A stretch of DNA of 64,000 bases from an uncultured Acidobacteriota bacterium (GCA_963770895.1 CAVYRF010000001.1:256001-320000), one strand, 5' to 3'. Positions 1,799 to 64,000 are shown, counted from the stretch's first letter. The notes: a model not told the origin generated them from the letters alone. Numbers and translations: made by a program.

Positions 1799-2065
1799 AT
1801 GGAGGTAGACGCAAAGACGGGCGCCGGTTGCGCAAGTTTCGAAGCGCATGCCCGCCGTCTTCGCCTCGCAAGGGAGACTTTGAGAAGCCTCAGCTTGCCG
1901 CGACTTCATGAACTGGCGGGAGGCGCGGCAACCGCGACCTGCGCCCCTCACGTGAGCTGCCCGCCTACCTGCCAGACCAGCTGCCAGCAGACCTGTCCGC
2001 AGGCCTGCGGCACTTCGGTTTGCGGTGGCATCTATACCTGCCCGTACTGCGATACTTTCCCGTAG
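1799..2065 (+). CDS. Putative RiPP (lanthipeptide-like) precursor, Cys/Thr/Ser-rich core
   Basis: Leader RRLRLARETLRSL...LHELAGG, then core AATATCAPHVSCPPTCQTSCQQTCPQACGTSVCGGIYTCPYCDTFP (9 Cys); start codon uncertain. Confidence 0.75.
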   Translation: MEVDAKTGAGCASFEAHARRLRLARETLRSLSLPRLHELAGGAATATCAPHVSCPPTCQTSCQQTCPQACGTSVCGGIYTCPYCDTFP

Positions 2066-54786: not shown

Positions 54787-56295
54787 ATGACCGAACAGCT
54801 GCGAGACCCCGAGCTCGACCGCCTGATCCAACAATTGAACAGCACGTCGGGCGGGCGCGCCGCGACCGCCGAAGCCGACGATGCGTTCGACCATCAGGAG
54901 CGCTTCGAACGCGTCGAGCGCGCCGGCGATGCCGGCGACGTCGGCGACACCGGCGGCGAGGACGACGATCACGATCGCTTCGGCGGCGGCGCCTCAGGTC
55001 CGCTGGCCGCGTCGCTGCCGGTCGCCGGCGGCCCCCAGGTCGGTGCTCCCCCGGCGCTCCTGACCATGCCGCGCCGCACGCCGGCGGCGAAAGCCGTCAG
55101 CGCTGGCGCCGCCGGCGCCGGCGAGCCCCTGGACGAGCCGCTGGGACGCGGCGGCGCCGCGGCCAATGCGGCGGGGGAGGCGCTGGGGCGGCTGCTCGGC
55201 GAATCGGCGCGGCGCGGGGCGAGCGACGTCCTGCTGATGCCCGGCCTGCCGGCGGTATTCCGCATCGACGGCCGGCTGAAGCGCGCCGACGGCGACCCGC
55301 TGTCCGGCGACGACATCGCGCGCCTGTTCCGGCCGCAGCTGGGCGGGCGGGTGCGGCGCGAGATCGAGGAGCGCGGCTACTCCGACTTCTCGCTCCACCT
55401 GCCGGGCGCGGCGCCGGCAGGCGGCGGCGCGGCGGCGGAGTTTGCGGGCGAGGCGGCGCGCACCGCCGGCGCCTGGCGCTTCCGGGTGAACCTGCACAGC
55501 CAGCGCGGCGAGCTGGCGGCGGCGCTGCGCGCCCTGCCGCACGAGATCCCGACGCTCGCCGGCCTCAACCTGCCGGCTTCCTTTGCCGAGCTGGTCAAGC
55601 AGAGCCGCGGCCTGGTCCTGGTGTGCGGCCCGACCGGTTCGGGCAAGTCGTCCACCTTGGCGGCGCTGATCGGCGAGATCAACCGCACCCGCACCGTCCA
55701 CGTCATCACCATCGAAGACCCGGTCGAATACGAGCACCGCTCCAACAAGTCGATCATCGAGCACGTCGAAGTGGGGCGCGACGCGCGCACCTTCAGCGAG
55801 GCGCTGCGCGCCGCGGTGCGCCAGGACCCCGACGTCATCCTGGTCGGCGAGATGCGCGACCTGGAAACCATGGCGACGGCGGTGACCGCCGCCGAAACCG
55901 GCCACCTGGTCCTGGCCACCCTGCACTCCAACGACGCGGTGCAGGCCGTCCACCGCATCGTCGACGTGTTCCCGCCGGTGCAGCAGGCGCAGATCCGCCA
56001 GCAGCTGGCGCTGTCGCTGACCGCGGTCGTCGCGCAGCAGCTGGTGCCGCGCGCCGACGGCCGCGGCCGCATCCCGGCGGTGGAGCTGATGCTGGCGACC
56101 TTCCCCATCCGCCACCACATCCGCAGCGACAAGCTGGAAAAGCTCTACAACGAGATCACCCTGGGCAAGCGCCAAGGCATGACGTCCTTCGAGGAATCGC
56201 TGGCCCAGCTGGTGCGCGCCGGCAAGATCGATCTAGAAGAAGCCCGCGTCCGCGCGAGCCATCCCGAAGAGCTGGACACCCGCCTGCGCGGCTGA
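54787..56295 (+). CDS. pilT: PilT/PilU family type IV pilus ATPase with long acidic/low-complexity N-terminus
   Basis: CGPTGSGKSSTL, TIEDPVEY, RQDPDVILVGEMRD, AAETGHLVLATLH. Confidence 0.9.
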   Translation: MTEQLRDPELDRLIQQLNSTSGGRAATAEADDAFDHQERFERVERAGDAGDVGDTGGEDDDHDRFGGGASGPLAASLPVAGGPQVGAPPALLTMPRRTPAAKAVSAGAAGAGEPLDEPLGRGGAAANAAGEALGRLLGESARRGASDVLLMPGLPAVFRIDGRLKRADGDPLSGDDIARLFRPQLGGRVRREIEERGYSDFSLHLPGAAPAGGGAAAEFAGEAARTAGAWRFRVNLHSQRGELAAALRALPHEIPTLAGLNLPASFAELVKQSRGLVLVCGPTGSGKSSTLAALIGEINRTRTVHVITIEDPVEYEHRSNKSIIEHVEVGRDARTFSEALRAAVRQDPDVILVGEMRDLETMATAVTAAETGHLVLATLHSNDAVQAVHRIVDVFPPVQQAQIRQQLALSLTAVVAQQLVPRADGRGRIPAVELMLATFPIRHHIRSDKLEKLYNEITLGKRQGMTSFEESLAQLVRAGKIDLEEARVRASHPEELDTRLRG

Positions 56296-56411
56296 CGCGG
56301 GTCGGCGTGGCCTGCCACCGCCGACCGGTACACCCGCGCCCCGGCGCGTCCAGCCCCTGGTGCGTCCAGACGCCGACGCGCCGAGGCCCCGGCCACCGCC
56401 GGCTCGGGCCG

Positions 56412-56591
56412 CTATTGGTCGCAGACCGACTTCAACGAACACCGCGGATATTCGGTGATGGTGCAGGCGCAGACGGTGACGCAGGTGTTGGCGGTGGCCA
56501 CGTCCCCGGCGGCTTGCCGCAGGCCGTCACGCGAAGCGGCCAGGCTGTGCAGCGTTTCGCGGGTCAGGTGCAGCTTCTTGCTCTTGCGCAT
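56412..56591 (-). CDS. Putative RiPP precursor (59 aa; not in ORF track)
   Basis: AAGGAGG RBS; MRKSKKLHLTRETLHSLAASRDGLRQAAGD-VATANTCVTVCACTITEYPRCSLKSVCDQ. Confidence 0.85.
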   Translation of the reverse strand: MRKSKKLHLTRETLHSLAASRDGLRQAAGDVATANTCVTVCACTITEYPRCSLKSVCDQ

Positions 56592-56621
56592 GACGGCCTC
56601 CTTGGTAGCTGAGTTTGGCGT

Positions 56622-56810
56622 TCAACAGTTGTCGCGGCCCGAGCAGTTTTGCGGGTCGGTGGGGTTGCAGGCGACGCAGTTGGTGACGCAGGCGCTGAAA
56701 CAGCTGATGACCAGGGTGGCGCCGGCCGCCGCCTGGCGCAGGTCGACACGGGGAGCGGCGAGGTTGCGCAGGGTCTCGCGGCTGAGGGCTAGTTTCTTGC
56801 TCTTGTGCAT
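56622..56810 (-). CDS. Putative RiPP precursor (62 aa)
   Basis: AAGGAG RBS; MHKSKKLALSRETLRNLAAPRVDLRQAAAG-ATLVISCFSACVTNCVACNPTDPQNCSGRDNC. Confidence 0.85.
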   Translation of the reverse strand: MHKSKKLALSRETLRNLAAPRVDLRQAAAGATLVISCFSACVTNCVACNPTDPQNCSGRDNC

Positions 56811-56832
56811 GTTGCGGTCTCCTTCGGTTCGC

Positions 56833-56862
56833 ATCGTAGGAGCCGCGTGAATGGCGTGTCAA
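56833..56862 (-). promoter_or_regulatory. Sigma70 promoter for the precursor pair
   Basis: TTGACA-N18-TACGAT, ending 22 nt upstream of the ATG at 56810. Confidence 0.7.
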
Positions 56863-56917
56863 TGCGGCCCGGACCTATCGGCCCGCGCTCGCCTTGCACG
56901 CTGTACAACGGGAAAGT

Positions 56918-58654
56918 CTAGGTTTCCAGGCGGAAGCGGGTTTCGGCCAGGCGGTAGAGGCGGCGCCAGACCAGGCGGTTGGTGACGACCACGATGGCGG
57001 CCAGGACGACGGTCGCGGTCAGCAGCTGATCGAAGTTGCCGGAGGCGGCGGCGGCGCTGATCAGCGAGCCCAGGCCGGTCGCCTGCAGGGTGCGGCCCTG
57101 GAAGTGGGTGTATTCCGCCAGGATGCTGGCGTTCCAGGCGCCGCCGGCGGCGGTGACCATGCCGGTGACCAGGAAGGGGAAGATGCCGGGCAGGATGAGC
57201 AGCCGCCAGCGCTCGCCGCGGGTGAAGCGGAAGACGCTCGCGGCCTCCTTGAGGTCGCTGGGGATGCCCATGGCGCCGGCGATGACATTGAACAGGATGT
57301 ACCACTGGGTGCCCAGCAGGATGAGGATGATCGGCGCCACGCCAAGCCCGCCGTCCTTGGTGATGAAGAACAGCAGCACCACCGGGAAGAGCGCCGTGGC
57401 GGGCACCGAGGCGGCGATCTGCACGATCGGCTGGACGACGCGCGCGATGCGCGGGTTGGAGCCGATGGCGACGCCGGCGGGGATCGCCCAGGCGGCGCCG
57501 ATGGCCAGGGCGCACAGGACGCGCAGGAAGGTGGCGCCGGCGCCGCGCAGGATGTCGCCCAGCTCGCCGCGGGTGAGCGATGCGAGCTGCATGCCGACGT
57601 GCACCAGCGCGTAAGCGGCGGCTGCCAGCACCGCCGCCGCCAAAAGCCAGCCGATCCAGCCGGCGAAGCGGGCGCGGCGCACCGGCGGCGGCTGATCGGC
57701 GCGGCGCACGAAGGCGGCGTTCAGGCGCTCGGCCAGCGGCGCCATCGCCTTCTGCCGCAGGTAGGCCAGGAAGGGAGAGCGCTGCACCAGGTTGAACACC
57801 CCCGAGTGCGGCACGGCGTCGCCCTCCACCTGCTCGAACTTGAACTTGTCGGCCCAGCAGATGATCGGCCGCCAGACCAGCTGGTCGAGCAGCACGATGA
57901 CGCTGATCATCGCCAGGAGGCCCCACAGGATCGCGGTGTTGTCGCCGGCGCTGGCCGCGGTCTGCAGGTAGGAGCCCAACCCCGGCAGGCGGAAGTCCCA
58001 CTTGCCCAGGATGAACATCTCGCAGGTCATGAGGTAGAACCAGCCGGCCGCCACCGACACCATCGAGTTCCACACCAGGCCGAGCGCCGAATAGGGCAGC
58101 TCCAGGCGCACCAGCCGCTGCCAGGCGTTGAAGCGATAGATGCGCGCCGCCTCGCGCAGCTCGGTGGGGATCGCCTTGAGCGACGAGTAGAAGCTGAACG
58201 CAATGTTCCACACCTGGCCGGTGAAGATCAGCAGGATGGTGCCCAGCTCCACCCCCACCTGCGAGTGCGGGAAGATGGCGATCATGGCGAGCATCAAGGG
58301 GGGCAGGAAGCTGACCACCGGGATCGACTGCATGATGTCGAGCAGCGGGATCATCAGCCGCTCGGCGGTGCGGTGGTACGCCGCCACGTACCCATAGACC
58401 AGCGCGAAGGCCATCGACAGCACGTAGGCGATCGTCATGCGCAGCAGCGAATAGGCGGTGTAGAGCGGCAGCGCCGATGGGCGTTGCGAGATGGCGGTGG
58501 ACTGGGCGAAGGGCCCCAGCCAGGTGCGGGCCAGCGCCAGCACGCCCCAGAAGAGAGCCAGGCCCAGGCCGATGATCAGCAGGTCCGCCCACGAGCCGCC
58601 GGGGCGCTCGTCCAGCACGGACGTCGCGACGGGGCCGGGGGTCGGTTTGAGCAT
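56918..58654 (-). CDS. NitT/TauT-type ABC permease (two fused membrane domains)
   Basis: LDIMQSIPV, GQVWNIAFSFYSSL, WNSMVSVAAGWF, ASVPATALFP, GTQWYILFN, GGAWNASI. Confidence 0.9.
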   Translation of the reverse strand: MLKPTPGPVATSVLDERPGGSWADLLIIGLGLALFWGVLALARTWLGPFAQSTAISQRPSALPLYTAYSLLRMTIAYVLSMAFALVYGYVAAYHRTAERLMIPLLDIMQSIPVVSFLPPLMLAMIAIFPHSQVGVELGTILLIFTGQVWNIAFSFYSSLKAIPTELREAARIYRFNAWQRLVRLELPYSALGLVWNSMVSVAAGWFYLMTCEMFILGKWDFRLPGLGSYLQTAASAGDNTAILWGLLAMISVIVLLDQLVWRPIICWADKFKFEQVEGDAVPHSGVFNLVQRSPFLAYLRQKAMAPLAERLNAAFVRRADQPPPVRRARFAGWIGWLLAAAVLAAAAYALVHVGMQLASLTRGELGDILRGAGATFLRVLCALAIGAAWAIPAGVAIGSNPRIARVVQPIVQIAASVPATALFPVVLLFFITKDGGLGVAPIILILLGTQWYILFNVIAGAMGIPSDLKEAASVFRFTRGERWRLLILPGIFPFLVTGMVTAAGGAWNASILAEYTHFQGRTLQATGLGSLISAAAASGNFDQLLTATVVLAAIVVVTNRLVWRRLYRLAETRFRLET

Positions 58655-58723
58655 GGCGATTCCGGCCGTGAGCGAAGCTGGGATGCGATCGAGCGCCAGG
58701 GGCGGGACAGGTGGTACTGGCGA

Positions 58724-60076
58724 TCAGTCTTCGGTCAGGTGCAGGCGCCCGGACTTGGCGTCGTAGTCGAAGATTTCCGCGTAGCGGCCCCAGTGGATGG
58801 CGGTCTGCAGCTGGCGCTCCGCTTCGTCGCTGCTGAAATGTTCGTCCAGGATGTCGGAAAAGAAATCGTCGGGCAGCGTGCGGTCGGCCTTGGTGCGCAG
58901 CGAGTTGGCGATCTGGCGCAGCAGCGTCACGTGCTGCAGCGCCGCATCCTTGAAGAGCTTTTTGCGCGTCAGGATGTCCGCTTCGGCGAAGGCCTTGCCG
59001 ATCGGGGTAATTTCCACGTCGCCCTCCTGCACGCGGATGAAATCGAGCATCGCGCAGGCTTCGATGATCGGCAGCAGGTCGCTGACTTCCATGCCCAGCT
59101 CGTCGGCCAGGCCGTACAGGTCGTCCTTGCCGCCGCGGTCGATGAGGATCTCCAGCAGGCCGGCGATGCCGCCCGGCCGCGCGTGCGGCAGCATCTGGTA
59201 GGAGACCGCGCGCTCGGCGGTGGCGGCGGACGACGTCTGACGACCGCCGGCGCCGATGGTGGTGGCGGTGGGCGGGGCGTGGTCGACGTTGGGCTGGGTG
59301 AGGACCTTGTAGATGTGGTCCACCAGCTCCAGGAAGCGGCGCGACTTGCGGTCGCGCGGCCGCGTCAGCTCGACTTCGAAGTCGGCGCGGATGCGGCCGG
59401 GATTGCGGCCCAGCACGATGACCCGGTCGGCCAGCAGCACCGCCTCTTCGATGTTGTGGGTGACCAGGAAGATGGCGCGCGTCGGCATCTTGCGGTTGGT
59501 CCACAGCTCCAGCAGCTCGCCGCGCAGGTTTTCGGCGGTCAGCACGTCGAGGGCCGAAAACGGTTCGTCCATGAACAGCACGTCCGGTTCCACGACCAGC
59601 GCCCGCGCGAAGCCGACGCGCTGCTTCATGCCGCCGGACAGCTCCTTGGGGTAGGCGGTTTCGAAGCCGTCGAGCCCCACGGTGTCCAGGATCTTGAGCG
59701 CCCGCTTGCGCCGGTCGACGACGCCGATGCCGCGCGCCGCGAGCGGCGCCTCGACGTTTTCGAGCACCGTCAGCCAGGGGAACAGGGCGAAGTTCTGGAA
59801 CACGATCGAGACGTTGGGCGCCTGGCCGGCTTCGGGCGCCTTGCGCCAGCGCACCGCGCCGGCCGACGGCGGCACCAGGCCGGTCATCATGCGCAGCAGC
59901 GTCGATTTGCCCGAGCCGGAGGGTCCCAGCAGGGCGAGGATCTTTTCGGGGTAGATCGCCAGGTTGGTGGGGGCGATGACTTCGATGCGGTTGCCCTCGG
60001 GCTGGATGTAGTACTTCTCGACGTCGCTGGTTTCGACGATCGGCAGCGGCGGAGCTGTCGTTTCCAAGGCCTGCAT
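58724..60076 (-). CDS. NitT/TauT-type ABC ATPase with C-terminal AAA-associated domain
   Basis: GPSGSGKS, LSGGMKQRVG, MDEPFSALD, HWGRYAEIF. Confidence 0.92.
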   Translation of the reverse strand: MQALETTAPPLPIVETSDVEKYYIQPEGNRIEVIAPTNLAIYPEKILALLGPSGSGKSTLLRMMTGLVPPSAGAVRWRKAPEAGQAPNVSIVFQNFALFPWLTVLENVEAPLAARGIGVVDRRKRALKILDTVGLDGFETAYPKELSGGMKQRVGFARALVVEPDVLFMDEPFSALDVLTAENLRGELLELWTNRKMPTRAIFLVTHNIEEAVLLADRVIVLGRNPGRIRADFEVELTRPRDRKSRRFLELVDHIYKVLTQPNVDHAPPTATTIGAGGRQTSSAATAERAVSYQMLPHARPGGIAGLLEILIDRGGKDDLYGLADELGMEVSDLLPIIEACAMLDFIRVQEGDVEITPIGKAFAEADILTRKKLFKDAALQHVTLLRQIANSLRTKADRTLPDDFFSDILDEHFSSDEAERQLQTAIHWGRYAEIFDYDAKSGRLHLTED

Positions 60077-60181
60077 CGGGTTCCTCGCTGCGCGCAAAAA
60101 TCCTGTGGTGCGGACGCCGGCGGAGTACGACAGGCTGGCCTACGCGCCTCCCGGGACGTGCGCGGGTGATCGGCTGAGCTT

Positions 60182-60197
60182 TGCACGCACCCTGCCA
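60182..60197 (-). promoter_or_regulatory. Possible sigma54 promoter
   Basis: TGGCAGGGTGCGTGCA, GG-N10-GC, upstream of the ABC ATPase. Confidence 0.4.
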
Positions 60198-60262
60198 TCA
60201 GTCAATGGAAACCGGCCCGTTCCGGGGTGCGCCCCGGTGACGGGCGGGTGACGGCCGTACGC

Positions 60263-61723
60263 TCAGGGAACTTTTTTTCGCAGGCTGACGGCGAGCGGGT
60301 CGAAGTCCGCCGCCGGGATCGTCTCGTAGGCGCCCAGGCGCTTGCTGAGATCGGCACCGAAGGCGGCGGCGTTGCCGACCAGCACGATCACACAGCTGTC
60401 CGGATGGATGCGCCCGCCGGCAAAGCGCTGGATCTCGGCGGCCGAAACCGCGCCGATGCGGTCGCGGTAGCCGTCCAGGAAGTCGCGGCCGCGGCCGTGC
60501 GCCAGGGCGCTGACGATCCGCCGCGTGACCCCGGGCGCGGTTTCGATCTCGAGCGGAAAGGAGCCGTTCAAGTAGGTCTTGGCTTCGTTCAGCTCCGCCG
60601 CCGGCACCGGCTCCTTGGCCATGCCGGCGATCACCTCCAGGGTGAGCTCCAGCGCGTCGACCGTGGACGCCGTCTTGGTCGAGGTGAAGGCGGTGAAGCT
60701 GCCGCTGTAGAGGTTTTCGGCGAAGCTGCTGTAGGCGCCGTAGGCCAGCCCGCGCTTGCGGCGGATCTCCTGGAAGAGGCGGAACGAGCTGCCGCCGCCC
60801 AGGACGGTGGCATAGAGGCGGCCGACGAACAGGTCCGGGTCGCCGTAGGCGTAGGCGGCCTGGCCGACGCGGATCTCCGTCTGCACCGCGTCGGGCTTGT
60901 CGACGACCACGATGCGCCGGTGGGCGTAGGCCGGCAGGTTGAGCGCCGGCGGCTGCGGCGCCGCGCCGCGCGCCCAGCCGCCCAGGGTGTGGTCGATAGC
61001 GGCCAGCGCCGCCGCCGGTTGAAAGTCGCCGGCCACCGCCAGGATGGCGCCGTTGGGCAGGTAGTGCGCGCGCTGGAACGCCACCAGGTCGTCGCGGGTC
61101 AGCGCCGCGACCGATTCCGTGGTGCCGCCGAGCGGCGCCCCGTACGGATAGGCGCCGAAGATCGCCCGCTGGAACGCGGTATCGGCGATCCAGCGGGCGC
61201 TCGACTTGCTGATCGCAAGGTTGCTGGTCGCCTGGTGGCGCCAGCGCTCCACCTCGTCGGCGGGGAAGGTCGGATGGAGCACCACGTCGGACACCAGGTC
61301 CAGCGCCAGGGGGAGCTGGTCGGAGGTGAAGGTGGCCGTCACCAGGGTGAAGTCGGCGGTCGCGGAGGCTTCCAGCTGGCCGCCCACGTCGTCGGCGGCG
61401 GCGGCGATCTGCTGCGCCGAGCGGCTGGCCGTGCCCTTGGTGAGCAGGTCGGCCGCGGCGCTGGCCAGGCCGGCCTTGGCCGCCGGCTCGAACAGCGCTC
61501 CAGCCGGCAGCAGCAGCTCGACCGTCACCGCGGGCTCGGTGTGCCGTTCCACGGTCACCACCCGCAGGCCGTTGGCCAGGGTACGTTCGGCGAAGGCGGG
61601 GAAGCGCAGCTCCTGCATCGGCTGCGGCGGCGGCGGGGTCGCCGGCACGGCCGGCGAGGGTCCGGCCGCGGCCGCCGCCAGCAGCGCCGCCAGCAGCAGC
61701 GGGCGAGTCACGGTCTGGCTCAT
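60263..61723 (-). CDS. M16B peptidase non-catalytic subunit
   Basis: TLANGLRV, LLTKGT (HxxEH absent), RLFQEIRRKRGLAYG R/Y motif; signal peptide. Confidence 0.9.
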   Translation of the reverse strand: MSQTVTRPLLLAALLAAAAAGPSPAVPATPPPPQPMQELRFPAFAERTLANGLRVVTVERHTEPAVTVELLLPAGALFEPAAKAGLASAAADLLTKGTASRSAQQIAAAADDVGGQLEASATADFTLVTATFTSDQLPLALDLVSDVVLHPTFPADEVERWRHQATSNLAISKSSARWIADTAFQRAIFGAYPYGAPLGGTTESVAALTRDDLVAFQRAHYLPNGAILAVAGDFQPAAALAAIDHTLGGWARGAAPQPPALNLPAYAHRRIVVVDKPDAVQTEIRVGQAAYAYGDPDLFVGRLYATVLGGGSSFRLFQEIRRKRGLAYGAYSSFAENLYSGSFTAFTSTKTASTVDALELTLEVIAGMAKEPVPAAELNEAKTYLNGSFPLEIETAPGVTRRIVSALAHGRGRDFLDGYRDRIGAVSAAEIQRFAGGRIHPDSCVIVLVGNAAAFGADLSKRLGAYETIPAADFDPLAVSLRKKVP

Positions 61724-63231
61724 GGGTGGGCTCCCCCATCCTTGGCGTCGCCGGCGGCGCCCGGTGGTCGCATGGCTTCGGGCAGCATCAGGACGGTGGT
61801 GCAGTTCTGCGGCATGAAATAGGTCCTGGCCACGCGCTGGACGTCGGCGGCGGTGACCTGCTCGTAGCGCTGCAGATCGTGATTGACCCGCGACAGGTCG
61901 CCCAGGATGACGCTGGCGTAGCCGATGGCGTCGGCCTTGTCCTGCGATCGTTCGCGGCCGAAGACGCGCCCCGCCACCACCTGGTTGCGCGCCGTTTCCA
62001 GCTCCGCCGCGCTGACCGGTTGGGCGACCAGGCGGTCGATCTCCTCTTGCAGCGCCCCGACGCCCGCCTCCGGCTTCTGGTTCTGCTGCAGGATGGCGTA
62101 AAAGAAGAACAGGCCGGGGTCTTCCAGGGTGACCGGCTGGCCCGCGGCGTCCACCGCGATCTGCCGCTCGTAGACCAGCTTGCGGTAGATGCGCGAGCTC
62201 TCACCCCCCGAAAGGATGTGGCTGGCGATCTCCAACGCGTAGACGTCGGCGCTGCGCGCCGCGGGTCCGTGGTATGCCAGGATCACCGCCGGCAGCGGCG
62301 CCGTGCTGTCGTAGACCACGGTGCGCCGCGGCGCGGTCTGCGCCGGTTCGGGCGGCGCCGCGCGATCGATGGGCGCTCCCTGCGGGATGGGGCCGAAGTA
62401 CGCTTCGACCTGGTGCAGGGCGCGGGCGGGGTCGAAGTCGCCGGCGATCACCAGGGTCGCGTTGTTGGGCACGTAATAGGTGCGGTAGAAGTCGCGCACG
62501 TCGCCGATGGTGGCGGCATCCAGGTCCACCATGCTGCCGATCGGCAGGCTGTGGTAGGGATGGGTCGTGTAGGCGTTGCCGAAGACGATTTCCGCCAGGT
62601 GGCCGAAGGGGCGGTTGTCGGTGTTCTGGCGGCGCTCTTCCTTGACCACCTCGCGCTCGGAGCGGAAGTTGTCTTCGGAGACGTCGAGCGTCTGCATGCG
62701 GTCGGCTTCCATCCACAGGATGCGGTCCAGGTAGTTGCTGGGGATGGTTTCGAAGTACAGCGTCCGGTCCCAGTCGGTGGTGGCGTTGTCGCGCCCGCCG
62801 ATCGATTCGATGAAGTGGCTGTGCTCTTCGGCGCCGATGTGGGCGGAGCCCTTGAACATCAGGTGCTCGAACAGGTGGGCAAAGCCGGTGCGCCCGCGGC
62901 GCTCGTTCTTGCTGCCGACGTGATACCAGACCTCGACGGTCGCCACCGGCACCGAGTGGTCTTCGAGCAGCAGCACCTGCAGGCCGTTGGGCAGCTGGTG
63001 CTGCTGTACGTCGAGCGCCGGCGGCGTCACCTGGATGGGCAGCGCCAGGGCCGGGGCCGCTGCCACCCCCGCGACGATCGCCGCCAGCGCCGCCAGCGCC
63101 GCCAGCGCGATCAGTGCGGTCAGCCTGGCCACCGTCGCCGGCCTCGCGAGGTGGGCGATTGCCGGGATTGCCGCGGCGGCCCGCGGCCGGCCCGGGGGCC
63201 GCTGGGGAGCAGGGTTTGAGGAGCTTTGCAT
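61720..63231 (-). CDS. M16B zinc peptidase catalytic subunit
   Basis: LPNGL, VGSKNE, GFAHLFEHLMFKGS, EREVVKEERR, YYVPNNA. Confidence 0.93.
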   Translation of the reverse strand: MQSSSNPAPQRPPGRPRAAAAIPAIAHLARPATVARLTALIALAALAALAAIVAGVAAAPALALPIQVTPPALDVQQHQLPNGLQVLLLEDHSVPVATVEVWYHVGSKNERRGRTGFAHLFEHLMFKGSAHIGAEEHSHFIESIGGRDNATTDWDRTLYFETIPSNYLDRILWMEADRMQTLDVSEDNFRSEREVVKEERRQNTDNRPFGHLAEIVFGNAYTTHPYHSLPIGSMVDLDAATIGDVRDFYRTYYVPNNATLVIAGDFDPARALHQVEAYFGPIPQGAPIDRAAPPEPAQTAPRRTVVYDSTAPLPAVILAYHGPAARSADVYALEIASHILSGGESSRIYRKLVYERQIAVDAAGQPVTLEDPGLFFFYAILQQNQKPEAGVGALQEEIDRLVAQPVSAAELETARNQVVAGRVFGRERSQDKADAIGYASVILGDLSRVNHDLQRYEQVTAADVQRVARTYFMPQNCTTVLMLPEAMRPPGAAGDAKDGGAHP

Positions 63232-63389
63232 CCGATCGCCTCCAGGTCGCGCCGACGGCCGCCGGCAGCCAGACAACGCCCGCGCAGGTGCTGCCGGCGG
63301 CAGCGGCGCAAGCCTACCATGCGCTACCGCGCGGCCGGGGCGCGAAGGGGGGTTGGCGCGGCCGGCGCCGGCGCGGTAGGGTACGCGCC

Positions 63390-64000
63390 ATGAAAGAGCC
63401 AATTCCCCTTCGCACCGTTGCTGCCGCCCCCTGGGTGTTCACCGTCCTCTGGTCTGCCGCCGTGTGCGGGTGTGTGCTGTTGAGCGCCGCGCCCGCTGCC
63501 GCGGCGCCGCCGGCGGCCGGCACCTCCTCCTCGGCCTCCGCGACCGGCATGGCGGCGGCTTCCTCCGGCGCCGAGCCGGCGGCGATCGCGGCGCCCGCCG
63601 ACGTCGCGGCGCCGCCGGCCGACGCCACGGTGACCGCCTCGGGTCTCGCCAGCAAGGTGCTGCAGCCCGGCACCGGCACCGTGCACCCGCTGCCCACCGA
63701 CAAGGTGAAGGTGCACTACACCGGCTGGACCACCGACGGCAAGATGTTCGACTCGTCGGTCCAGCGCGGCCGGCCGGCGGTGTTCCAGCTCGACCAGGTG
63801 ATCTCGGGTTGGACCGAGGGCGTGCAGCTGATGGTCGAGGGCGAAAAGCGGCGCCTGTGGATCCCGGCCAAGCTGGCCTACGCCGGTCGCGCCGACCGGC
63901 CGCAGGGGATGCTGGTGTTCGACGTCGAGCTGCTCGACGTCCTGCACCTGCCCGACGTGCCTGCCGACGTCGCCGCGCCGCCGGCCGACGCCCAGAAGTC
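63390..64000 (+). CDS. FKBP-type peptidyl-prolyl isomerase, probably tandem FKBP domains (partial; not in ORF track)
   Basis: PADVAAPPADA, TASGLASKVL, VKVHYTGWTTDGKMFDSS, VISGWTEGVQLM, LVFDVELL, then a second PADVAAPPADA. Confidence 0.92.
   Translation, partial: MKEPIPLRTVAAAPWVFTVLWSAAVCGCVLLSAAPAAAAPPAAGTSSSASATGMAAASSGAEPAAIAAPADVAAPPADATVTASGLASKVLQPGTGTVHPLPTDKVKVHYTGWTTDGKMFDSSVQRGRPAVFQLDQVISGWTEGVQLMVEGEKRRLWIPAKLAYAGRADRPQGMLVFDVELLDVLHLPDVPADVAAPPADAQK

Follow-up and report, generated by a model that had tools for sequence, protein, structure and literature searches.

What do two small, cysteine-rich genes encode when no enzyme that could modify their products lies nearby, and which enzymes would act on them? 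This question is raised by positions 56412 to 56862 of a 64,000-nucleotide stretch of DNA from an uncultured Acidobacteriota bacterium (GCA_963770895.1, CAVYRF010000001.1:256001-320000), hereafter the window. A sequence-only reading of the window had described the two genes as tandem orphan precursors of RiPPs (peptides made by ribosomes and modified after translation), with leaders of a class I lanthipeptide type and modification in trans. We computed the gene structure of the pair, the size of its family, the homology of its leaders, the enzyme inventory of the genome, and gene linkage in relatives. On this basis we suggest, with a probability of roughly 0.7, that the window open reading frames (ORFs) encode class I lanthipeptide precursors that undergo modification in trans, in a class I equivalent of the prochlorosin system. 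The parts of this reading differ in strength: by their sequences the two genes, P0001 and P0002, very probably belong to the LanA family, and a LanB/LanC pair encoded on another contig (C2) is, with rather less assurance, predicted to be their enzyme.

Leader type and precursor family

Both genes lie on the minus strand. Their products divide into a leader and a core at cleavage sites inferred by alignment with paralogues whose leaders end in Gly-Gly; the E-values come from the leader hidden Markov model (HMM) introduced below.

56622-56810, minus strand: precursor gene 1 (P0001), lanA-like, 62 aa; leader-HMM E 9e-11
56721-56810, minus strand: inferred leader of P0001, 30 aa, ending in AAAG
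56625-56720, minus strand: inferred core of P0001, 32 aa, 6 Cys, 6 Ser/Thr
56412-56591, minus strand: precursor gene 2 (P0002), lanA-like, 59 aa; leader-HMM E 1e-10
56505-56591, minus strand: inferred leader of P0002, 29 aa, ending in AAG
56415-56504, minus strand: inferred core of P0002, 30 aa, 5 Cys, 7 Ser/Thr

The paralogous leaders and unrelated, Cys/Ser/Thr-rich cores described from the sequence alone were recovered. BLASTP aligned P0001 with P0002 at an E-value of 1e-13, with 28/62 identities concentrated in the first 30 residues, 20 of which are identical by hand count; the cores share few positions, several of them Cys. Both cores contain Cys together with at least as many Ser/Thr residues. 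The sequence-only reading had also called one of the genes invisible to the ORF track, and P0002, at 59 aa, indeed falls below the 60-aa default of the ORF list.

Alignment of 22 leaders of the family revealed the pattern L-x-L-x-R-x5-L (L7-x-L9-x-R11-x5-L17), with the conserved form LxLxRETLxxL...A(A/G)G, in which M1, L7 and L9 are invariant and R11, E12, T13, L14, L17 and L24 are at least 90% conserved. According to Walker et al. (2020, PMC7268733), an LxLxKx5L motif occurs in Bacteroidetes class I LanAs, many of these leaders have a Gly-Gly end, and the cluster often encodes a C39 protease. The family leaders carry this motif with Arg in place of Lys, together with the Gly-Gly-type end, the window pair itself ending in AAAG and AAG.

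In relatives, leaders of this family stand next to class I enzymes. The sequence-only reading had proposed a search for enzyme loci whose adjacent precursors share the leader, and four of the six LanB loci fetched from relatives have leader-family ORFs directly beside LanC and LanB:

Locus L072: one leader-family ORF
Locus L073: one leader-family ORF
Locus L074: two leader-family ORFs
Locus L075: six leader-family ORFs in tandem
Loci L076 and L077: none

The linkage extends to LanC, LanB and the C39 transporter, and full-length comparison of the LanB of the present genome with the LanBs of the six loci gave 47-60% identity in every case. Three further results tie the leaders of this genome to these linked precursors: (i) LanAs adjoining LanC/LanB in relatives pass the curated NCBIfam model NF038153 (lant_leader_L1a, cut-off 22 bits) at 40.3, 36.8 and 23.0 bits, (ii) the leader HMM matches the LanB/LanC-linked LanAs of relatives at E 1e-12 to 1e-15, and (iii) hhalign matched the leaders of this genome, window pair included, with a relative's LanAs beside LanC/LanB at a probability of 98.1% (E 7.5e-14). 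The leader pattern and the hhalign match bear out the assignment to RiPP precursors with a class I leader.

The genome (8.16 Mb in three contigs, 70.7% GC) was scanned with a regular expression and then, as a six-frame translation, with a leader HMM seeded from 53 of the ORFs found, which match by construction. At E<=1e-3 the HMM matched 91 small ORFs, a number that rose to 97 at E<=0.1; they lie on all three contigs. None of the reversed-sequence decoys matched at E<=0.1. This genome-wide search, suggested by the sequence-only reading, limits its description of the pair as orphan. Within the window the description stands, as does the statement that no modifying enzyme is encoded there: Pfam searches of 44 crudely called ORFs found no LanB, LanC, LanM, radical SAM, YcaO or C39 gene. 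In the genome it does not stand, since the pair represents two of 91-97 members, a third member lies in the same window, and some members are found within 320 bp of LanC-like genes.

An ATG start is present in 91/97 members and a 4-mer Shine-Dalgarno core at -16..-4 in 87/97, and a sigma-70-like match lies within 200 nt upstream of only 6/97. The rule for splitting leader from core worked for 90 members, the other 7 being dropped as unsplittable. The 90 cores have a median length of 26 aa and a median of 4 Cys, with at least two Cys in 87 of them; Cys accounts for 16.5%, Thr for 15.4% and Ser for 8.3% of core residues. Mean pairwise identity is 0.42 for the leaders and 0.23 for the cores.

The same data bear on a different possibility, namely that the products are unmodified or disulfide-only double-glycine secreted peptides, bacteriocin-like or signal-like, that are cut and exported by a C39 ABC transporter with no lanthionine synthetase involved. 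Leaders of the split members end in GG (54), AG (26), GA (5) or AA (5), giving GG/AG-type ends in 80/90; the genome has nine C39 loci; for 91 of the 97 members, the pair included, every lanthipeptide enzyme is over 5 kb away (hand count); and the even number of Cys residues in P0001 permits three disulfides. We nevertheless regard unmodified products as unlikely. Four of the six relatives' loci place the same leader beside LanB and LanC, with copies passing the curated class I model, Ser plus Thr equal or outnumber Cys in 89/90 cores, the Thr content is a lanthipeptide-like bias, and P0002 has an odd number of Cys residues. Compared with double-glycine peptides of the PCAT (LanT) type, the family shares a short leader ending in GG/AG, and the genome encodes a C39 ABC transporter together with HlyD partners, whereas in its remaining part the leader matches those of lanthipeptides, and the model TIGR01847 gave only a sub-threshold match of 12 bits in one relative.

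Candidate enzymes of maturation and export

If the family members are lanthipeptide precursors, a synthetase should be encoded elsewhere in the genome, and several were found. A full LanB (C2:5180050-5183583; 1177 aa; Lant_dehydr_N 550 bits, Lant_dehydr_C 236 bits) is arranged tail-to-tail with a LanC (C2:5178405-5180015) that keeps the GxAHG, WCYG and CHG motifs. A second LanB-like ORF is weak and lacks the C-terminal domain. LanC-like domains occur at 13 places, comprising nine standalone genes, two LanM and two class III/IV-like enzymes, and standalone LanC-like genes lie within 320 bp of family members at five places. The 20 kb fetched around the LanB/LanC pair contain no leader-family ORF, the 1.5 kb upstream of lanB contain no small Cys-rich ORF, and the window pair is not clustered with lanB and lanC.

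Among the nine C39 loci, a LanT-type C39 ABC transporter (C2:2970298-2972460) is located beside a LanC and HlyD genes, away from the LanB locus. It is 59-61% identical to the transporters in two LanA-LanC-LanB clusters of a relative, the other PCAT of the genome (C1:1782771) reaching 39-47%. This second PCAT was considered as a dedicated exporter and set aside as not family-specific, because its close orthologues (59-81% identity) occur also in the leader-free genomes G011, G021, G026, G034, G036 and G037.

Based on this inventory, we propose the following pathway: (i) the leader would be bound by the single full-length LanB of the genome, (ii) this LanB would dehydrate Ser and Thr residues of the core, (iii) the adjacent LanC, or another standalone LanC with Zn motifs, would add Cys thiols to form thioether rings, and (iv) the leader would be cut after the GG/AG-type site and the product exported by the LanT-type transporter with its HlyD partners. 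Glutamyl-tRNA is used by dehydratases of class I (PMC9993889). Both the acting enzyme and modification as such are predictions here, and action in trans is deduced from gene content. All enzymes of this pathway lie on a contig other than that of the window, so the system would work in a prochlorosin-like manner, with many unlinked substrates served by one enzyme set. Its extension to the whole family, in which the genomes of a family of probable soil Thermoanaerobaculia would each rely on one LanB, a handful of satellite LanCs and one LanT transporter to process about 100 unlinked and rapidly evolving precursors, is a tentative proposal to which we assign slightly less than even odds.

Complex prediction for LanB residues 1-800 with the leader gave a score of 0.57, the best of three controls scoring 0.00; the runs agreed in at least 56% of contacts, and the partner had a predicted local distance difference test (pLDDT) score of at least 49. 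The mark that this prediction passed was reached by 116/157 solved complexes and 2/215 mismatched pairs; passes scoring at most 0.60 comprised only 18/157 solved complexes plus both passing mismatches, so the result weakly supports binding. A LanB-leader complex has been solved before, and the pass may therefore reflect likeness alone.

Co-occurrence was analyzed in 41 genomes, this one included, that are kin and not independent, and it was used only to show that LanM is dispensable:

At least three leader copies (22 genomes): LanB at E<1e-100 in 19, any LanM in 17
Fewer than three leader copies (19 genomes): LanB at E<1e-100 in 4 (G002, G017, G029, G030), any LanM in 4

The leader-rich exceptions for LanB are G020, where the gene is split over two frames, G024, where it is in five fragments, and G005 (228 bits; genome 84% complete). 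Leader-rich genomes with no LanM match are G008 (26 copies), G018 (28 copies, 100% complete), G022 (34 copies), G027 and G040. Each LanM of the present genome has an adjacent precursor of its own, P0003 (C2:4307447-4307695; L034:11447-11695) and P0004 (C2:276212-276460; L035:11212-11460), with a leader of the form ...(I/A)RAW(K/R)D..., which we take to be mersacidin-like, and a short core that includes Cys. The two LanM loci are class II systems separate from the family, and LanM was rejected as the enzyme of the family on two grounds, these different-leader precursors and the existence of leader-rich genomes without LanM.

Three side observations concern the other enzymes of the genome. Two LanC-like genes (C1:1579906-1581279, L031:7906-9435; C2:2707932-2709301, L032:8677-10301) are poor in Zn motifs, lacking WCxG and CHG and keeping GLAHGVAG; each lies 145-147 bp from a precursor with a '...ETLLPL...' leader variant and a core without Cys, and two further members of this variant are found elsewhere (C1:652841, C2:5020187). 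A class III/IV-like synthetase (C2:3859988-3863092; L038:1988-5092) combines RamC_N, protein kinase and LanC-like domains with an N-terminal signal-peptidase S26 domain in the same frame (residues 29-181, E 2.4e-11); we know of no other fusion of S26 with a class III/IV synthetase. A GMC-family oxidoreductase (C1:1588473-1590446; L031:16473-18446) is encoded about 7 kb from a LanC-like gene.

Could an enzyme of a different class act on the family, be it a LanM, a radical SAM/SPASM enzyme of the TIGR04149 type, an MNIO, a YcaO or a thiazole-making GMC oxidoreductase? A LanM is encoded 3.5 kb from one member (C2:4304002), relatives' copies score 18.8-22.3 bits on TIGR04149, below its cut-off of 25, and the genome has five SPASM loci, one YcaO and two MNIO. 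The GMC oxidoreductase near a LanC-like gene is a further candidate, as the available text of PMC13083261 describes the GMC oxidoreductases ThaO and TheO of Thermoanaerobaculia as installing thiazoles in Cys-rich RiPP cores. We judge such an enzyme improbable, given that the LanMs have precursors of their own and are missing from some leader-rich genomes, that coordinate comparison placed no SPASM, YcaO or MNIO gene within 3 kb of a family member, and that in all relatives tested TIGR04149 scored below the class I model; the window pair itself gave no TIGR04149 match. Modification by LanB and LanC thus remains the favored assignment.

Signals, surroundings and turnover of the pair

Besides the coding regions, the window contains the following features of the pair, and a third family member at its other end:

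56833..56862, minus strand: sigma-70-like match TTGACA-N18-TACGAT, with -35 at 56862-56857 and -10 at 56838-56833
56818..56824, minus strand: Shine-Dalgarno sequence AAGGAGA, 7 nt 5' of the P0001 ATG at 56810
56597..56603, minus strand: Shine-Dalgarno sequence AAGGAGG, 5 nt 5' of the P0002 ATG at 56591
56296..56411, minus strand: GC-rich hairpins without a U-tract, 3' of P0002, from folding energy compared with shuffles
~1799-2065, plus strand: third, divergent family member, 88 aa from the only in-frame ATG; no Shine-Dalgarno sequence; core with 14 Cys; leader-HMM E 1e-06

Translation, the AAGGAG-type sites and a promoter scan agree with the two strong ribosome-binding sites and the promoter noted in the sequence-only reading. 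The scan of 56100-57100 found exactly one sigma-70-like site, matching at 10/12 positions, where 50 shuffles averaged 0.1; it is a consensus match only, the promoters of the host lineage being uncharacterised. A transcript from this site would be expected to begin near 56826. P0001 can alternatively be read as 70 aa from an upstream ATG at 56834; since that codon overlaps the -10 hexamer, the start at the internal ATG at 56810 is likelier. A plus-strand ORF of 131 aa (56455-56850) overlaps both genes and uses the same third codon positions, which makes GC content at these positions (GC3) uninformative on the strand. The minus strand was therefore chosen from the ribosome-binding sites, the ATG starts and the 97-member paralogy, and the plus-strand ORF, which has no Pfam match, was treated as an antisense shadow. 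Downstream, the hairpin region (56290-56420) has a minimum free energy of -83.8 kcal/mol (z -2.45; 2/200 shuffles fold equally well). No terminator was found by a scan of the pair region, and the hairpins are a possible transcript end, common to the convergent PilT-like gene. The pair forms its own small two-gene unit. The third member has an uncertain start and may be decaying.

On the 5' side of the pair and on the same strand, positions 56918-63402 hold an apparent operon of two M16 (insulinase-like) peptidases, an ABC ATPase with AAA_assoc_C and a double BPD_transp_1 permease. The permease is 72-81% identical in five congeners, where the 1.5 kb fetched on either side contain no precursor; the adjacency of pair and operon is therefore taken as coincidental.

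Comparison of the surroundings of all members revealed no shared context. When 696 ORFs located up to 5 kb from members were clustered without bias, no universal neighbor emerged; the underlying tables are incomplete, as the gene caller, a crude one based on GC3, overlooked some genes or put them on the wrong strand (a second LanC in L033, a PCAT in L040). The commonest neighbor is a duplicated MacB/FtsX-type permease. Such MacB_PCD/FtsX permeases of about 800-950 aa occupy 53 loci in the genome (e.g., C1:985613-988114, C2:76568-78991, C2:4834755-4837367 and C2:5660281-5662728) and lie within 1 kb of 8/97 members against 2.9 expected, a number reached in 8/1000 simulations; of the eight members three form one tandem group, and six distinct loci have gaps of 80-205 bp. 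A role of these permeases in export or immunity is possible, as is a chance association. Words containing GGCAC are enriched among 6-mers and 7-mers upstream of the 97 members (e.g., AGGCAC, 11 observed against 1.7 expected); as evidence of a shared promoter motif they were set aside, since the 60 GGCAC sites show no consistent sigma-54 spacing and the background used for the enrichment was mostly coding DNA. A mobile cassette was likewise rejected: all-against-all blastn of 300-nt flanks gave 7 upstream and 8 downstream pairs, mostly overlaps of neighbors or a few recent duplicates, and no common flank. Two members 870 kb apart (C2:3876774-3876929 and C2:4747628-4747783) have cores that differ at one residue (...AGAAT(F/S)PPVCENSGNAITHCTGCC) and flanks that are about 80% similar, a recent duplication inside an otherwise highly diverged family.

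The leader profile matched 25 of the 41 genomes, this one included, with about 690 matches overall; at the settings of that search the present genome counts 74 copies. Among other genomes of the same taxonomic family 20/24 match, with 1-53 copies each, and the same range is seen in nine congeners, eight of which have 14-53. In an even sample of the phylum, comprising 150 other genomes with a completeness of 90% or more, four match at E<=1e-5 and have between 1 and 4 copies (one of them, G182, is marked unpublished). High copy numbers (14-53) are thus largely confined to one family of probable Thermoanaerobaculia. The closest leader relatives are recorded as metagenome-assembled genomes of Thermoanaerobaculia or Acidobacteriota; two Actinomycetota, one Chitinophaga pinensis and one Kordia record were also returned by that search. 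A profile search of a protein database gave 620 proteins at E<=1e-3; among the 120 matches listed, those with names are nearly all called 'hypothetical protein', and two are called 'class I lanthipeptide'.

Members of the family differ in how far they are conserved. Some have orthologues elsewhere with conserved cores (53/64 and 41/71 identities). In this genome the pair sits between the permease and the PilT-like gene; in two congeners (G003, L113:3290-3928; G001, L114:3289-3984) that slot contains a plus-strand ORF of 212-231 aa, possibly a Uma2-family endonuclease-like gene. The spread of copy numbers in congeners and the lack of a common orthologue of the pair point to rapid turnover, as judged from sequence comparison.

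A number of observations weigh against class I lanthipeptide precursors modified in trans. With regard to the leaders, those of the window pair end in AAAG-A and AAG-D and not in GG; P0001 and P0002 matched no NCBIfam or Pfam model even at E<=10; and none of 22 tested members of this genome matched NF038153 at E<=1e-4, the best reaching 15.5 bits against the cut-off of 22. Because the LanAs of relatives pass this model and the copies of this genome miss it, we regard the latter as a divergent extension of that family. With regard to the enzymes, the LanC-like gene closest to the pair is 199 kb away and the closest C39 gene 220 kb, with LanB on another contig, and no precedent was found for a class I enzyme pair with about 100 substrates. 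Across genomes, G002, G017, G029 and G030 pair a strong LanB with 0-1 leader copies, so the presence of LanB does not predict expansion, and LanM tracks the family as well (17/22 leader-rich against 4/19 leader-poor genomes). With regard to the pair itself, a search of P0001 alone against a set of 5.8 billion proteins returned only itself, and nine congeners contained no DNA-level orthologue of the pair, only short leader-coding matches. Finally, seven sequencing runs from four studies are listed for positions 56250-56950, six of DNA, one of unknown kind and none of RNA. P0001 alone also found no relative when searched against genome contigs.

Some of these observations would be expected if the pair were decaying or silent copies, the debris of a rapidly turning-over family: the missing orthologues in nine congeners, the 212-231 aa ORF in the same slot of two of them, the atypical leader ends (AG-A, G-D), a third window member without a Shine-Dalgarno sequence, and the lack of RNA among the runs listed for the locus. 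Decay is nonetheless very unlikely in view of the genes themselves, which have intact frames, ATG starts, strong Shine-Dalgarno sequences and a promoter-like site, and whose products have cores rich in Cys, Ser and Thr and complete leader motifs that score in the family's upper third (HMM E about 1e-10). We therefore retain the interpretation of P0001 and P0002 as class I lanthipeptide precursors.

Relation to known systems and biological meaning

Both the leader type and the enzyme class are already known. The closest known systems are the double-glycine peptides compared above and two kinds of lanthipeptide. Bacteroidetes-type class I LanAs (the pinensin family; NF038153) share with the present family the L-x-L-x-R/K-x5-L spacing, the GG-type end, the Cys/Ser/Thr-rich core and, as seen in relatives, the association with LanB, LanC and C39. 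The family differs in having Arg for Lys, in the scores of the pair and of all 22 tested members, which fall below the curated cut-off, in its probable host, an acidobacterium of the Thermoanaerobaculia, and in the arrangement and number of its genes, about 97 per genome without linkage to the enzymes.

Prochlorosins and synechococsins likewise comprise dozens of dispersed precursors with a conserved leader and hypervariable cores, served by few enzyme genes. In the prochlorosin system there is a single class II LanM, whereas here the linked enzymes are of class I, with separate LanB and LanC; no leader of the Nif11 or NHLP type was detected in the window pair by Pfam or NCBIfam models; the host is a probable soil bacterium and not a marine cyanobacterium; and several satellite LanCs adjoin individual precursors. 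The available text of a 2025 review (PMC12328550) names the 29 precursors of ProcM and the 79 of SyncM as the largest natural substrate sets, both of class II, and the 91-97 copies found here are above the reported 79.

About 97 unlinked class I precursors with one LanB and satellite LanCs are not described for Acidobacteriota in the full-text literature searched, which leaves aside subscription-only papers and supplements. The only paper found that contains both 'Thermoanaerobaculia' and 'lanthipeptide' concerns, in its available text, class II/III clusters with a GMC oxidoreductase (PMC13083261).

The family falls into a blind spot of current annotation. The curated leader model reaches 0/22 of its tested members, the proteins listed from relatives mostly carry the name 'hypothetical protein', and cluster-based mining would miss precursors that lie hundreds of kilobases from their enzymes. 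As a result, the biosynthetic capacity of these bacteria has probably been underestimated. If the proposed assignment is true, no larger natural lanthipeptide library would have been reported from a single genome to date, and this one would go unseen by standard annotation and cluster-based mining. Should the LanB/LanC pair act on the 91-97 dispersed precursors, class I enzymes that tolerate different substrates would occur naturally, and their promiscuity could be compared with that of ProcM directly, using defined genes. The rapid turnover of the precursors would be of interest for the evolution of peptide libraries, and in these bacteria one distant enzyme set may make a large library of ring-containing peptides.

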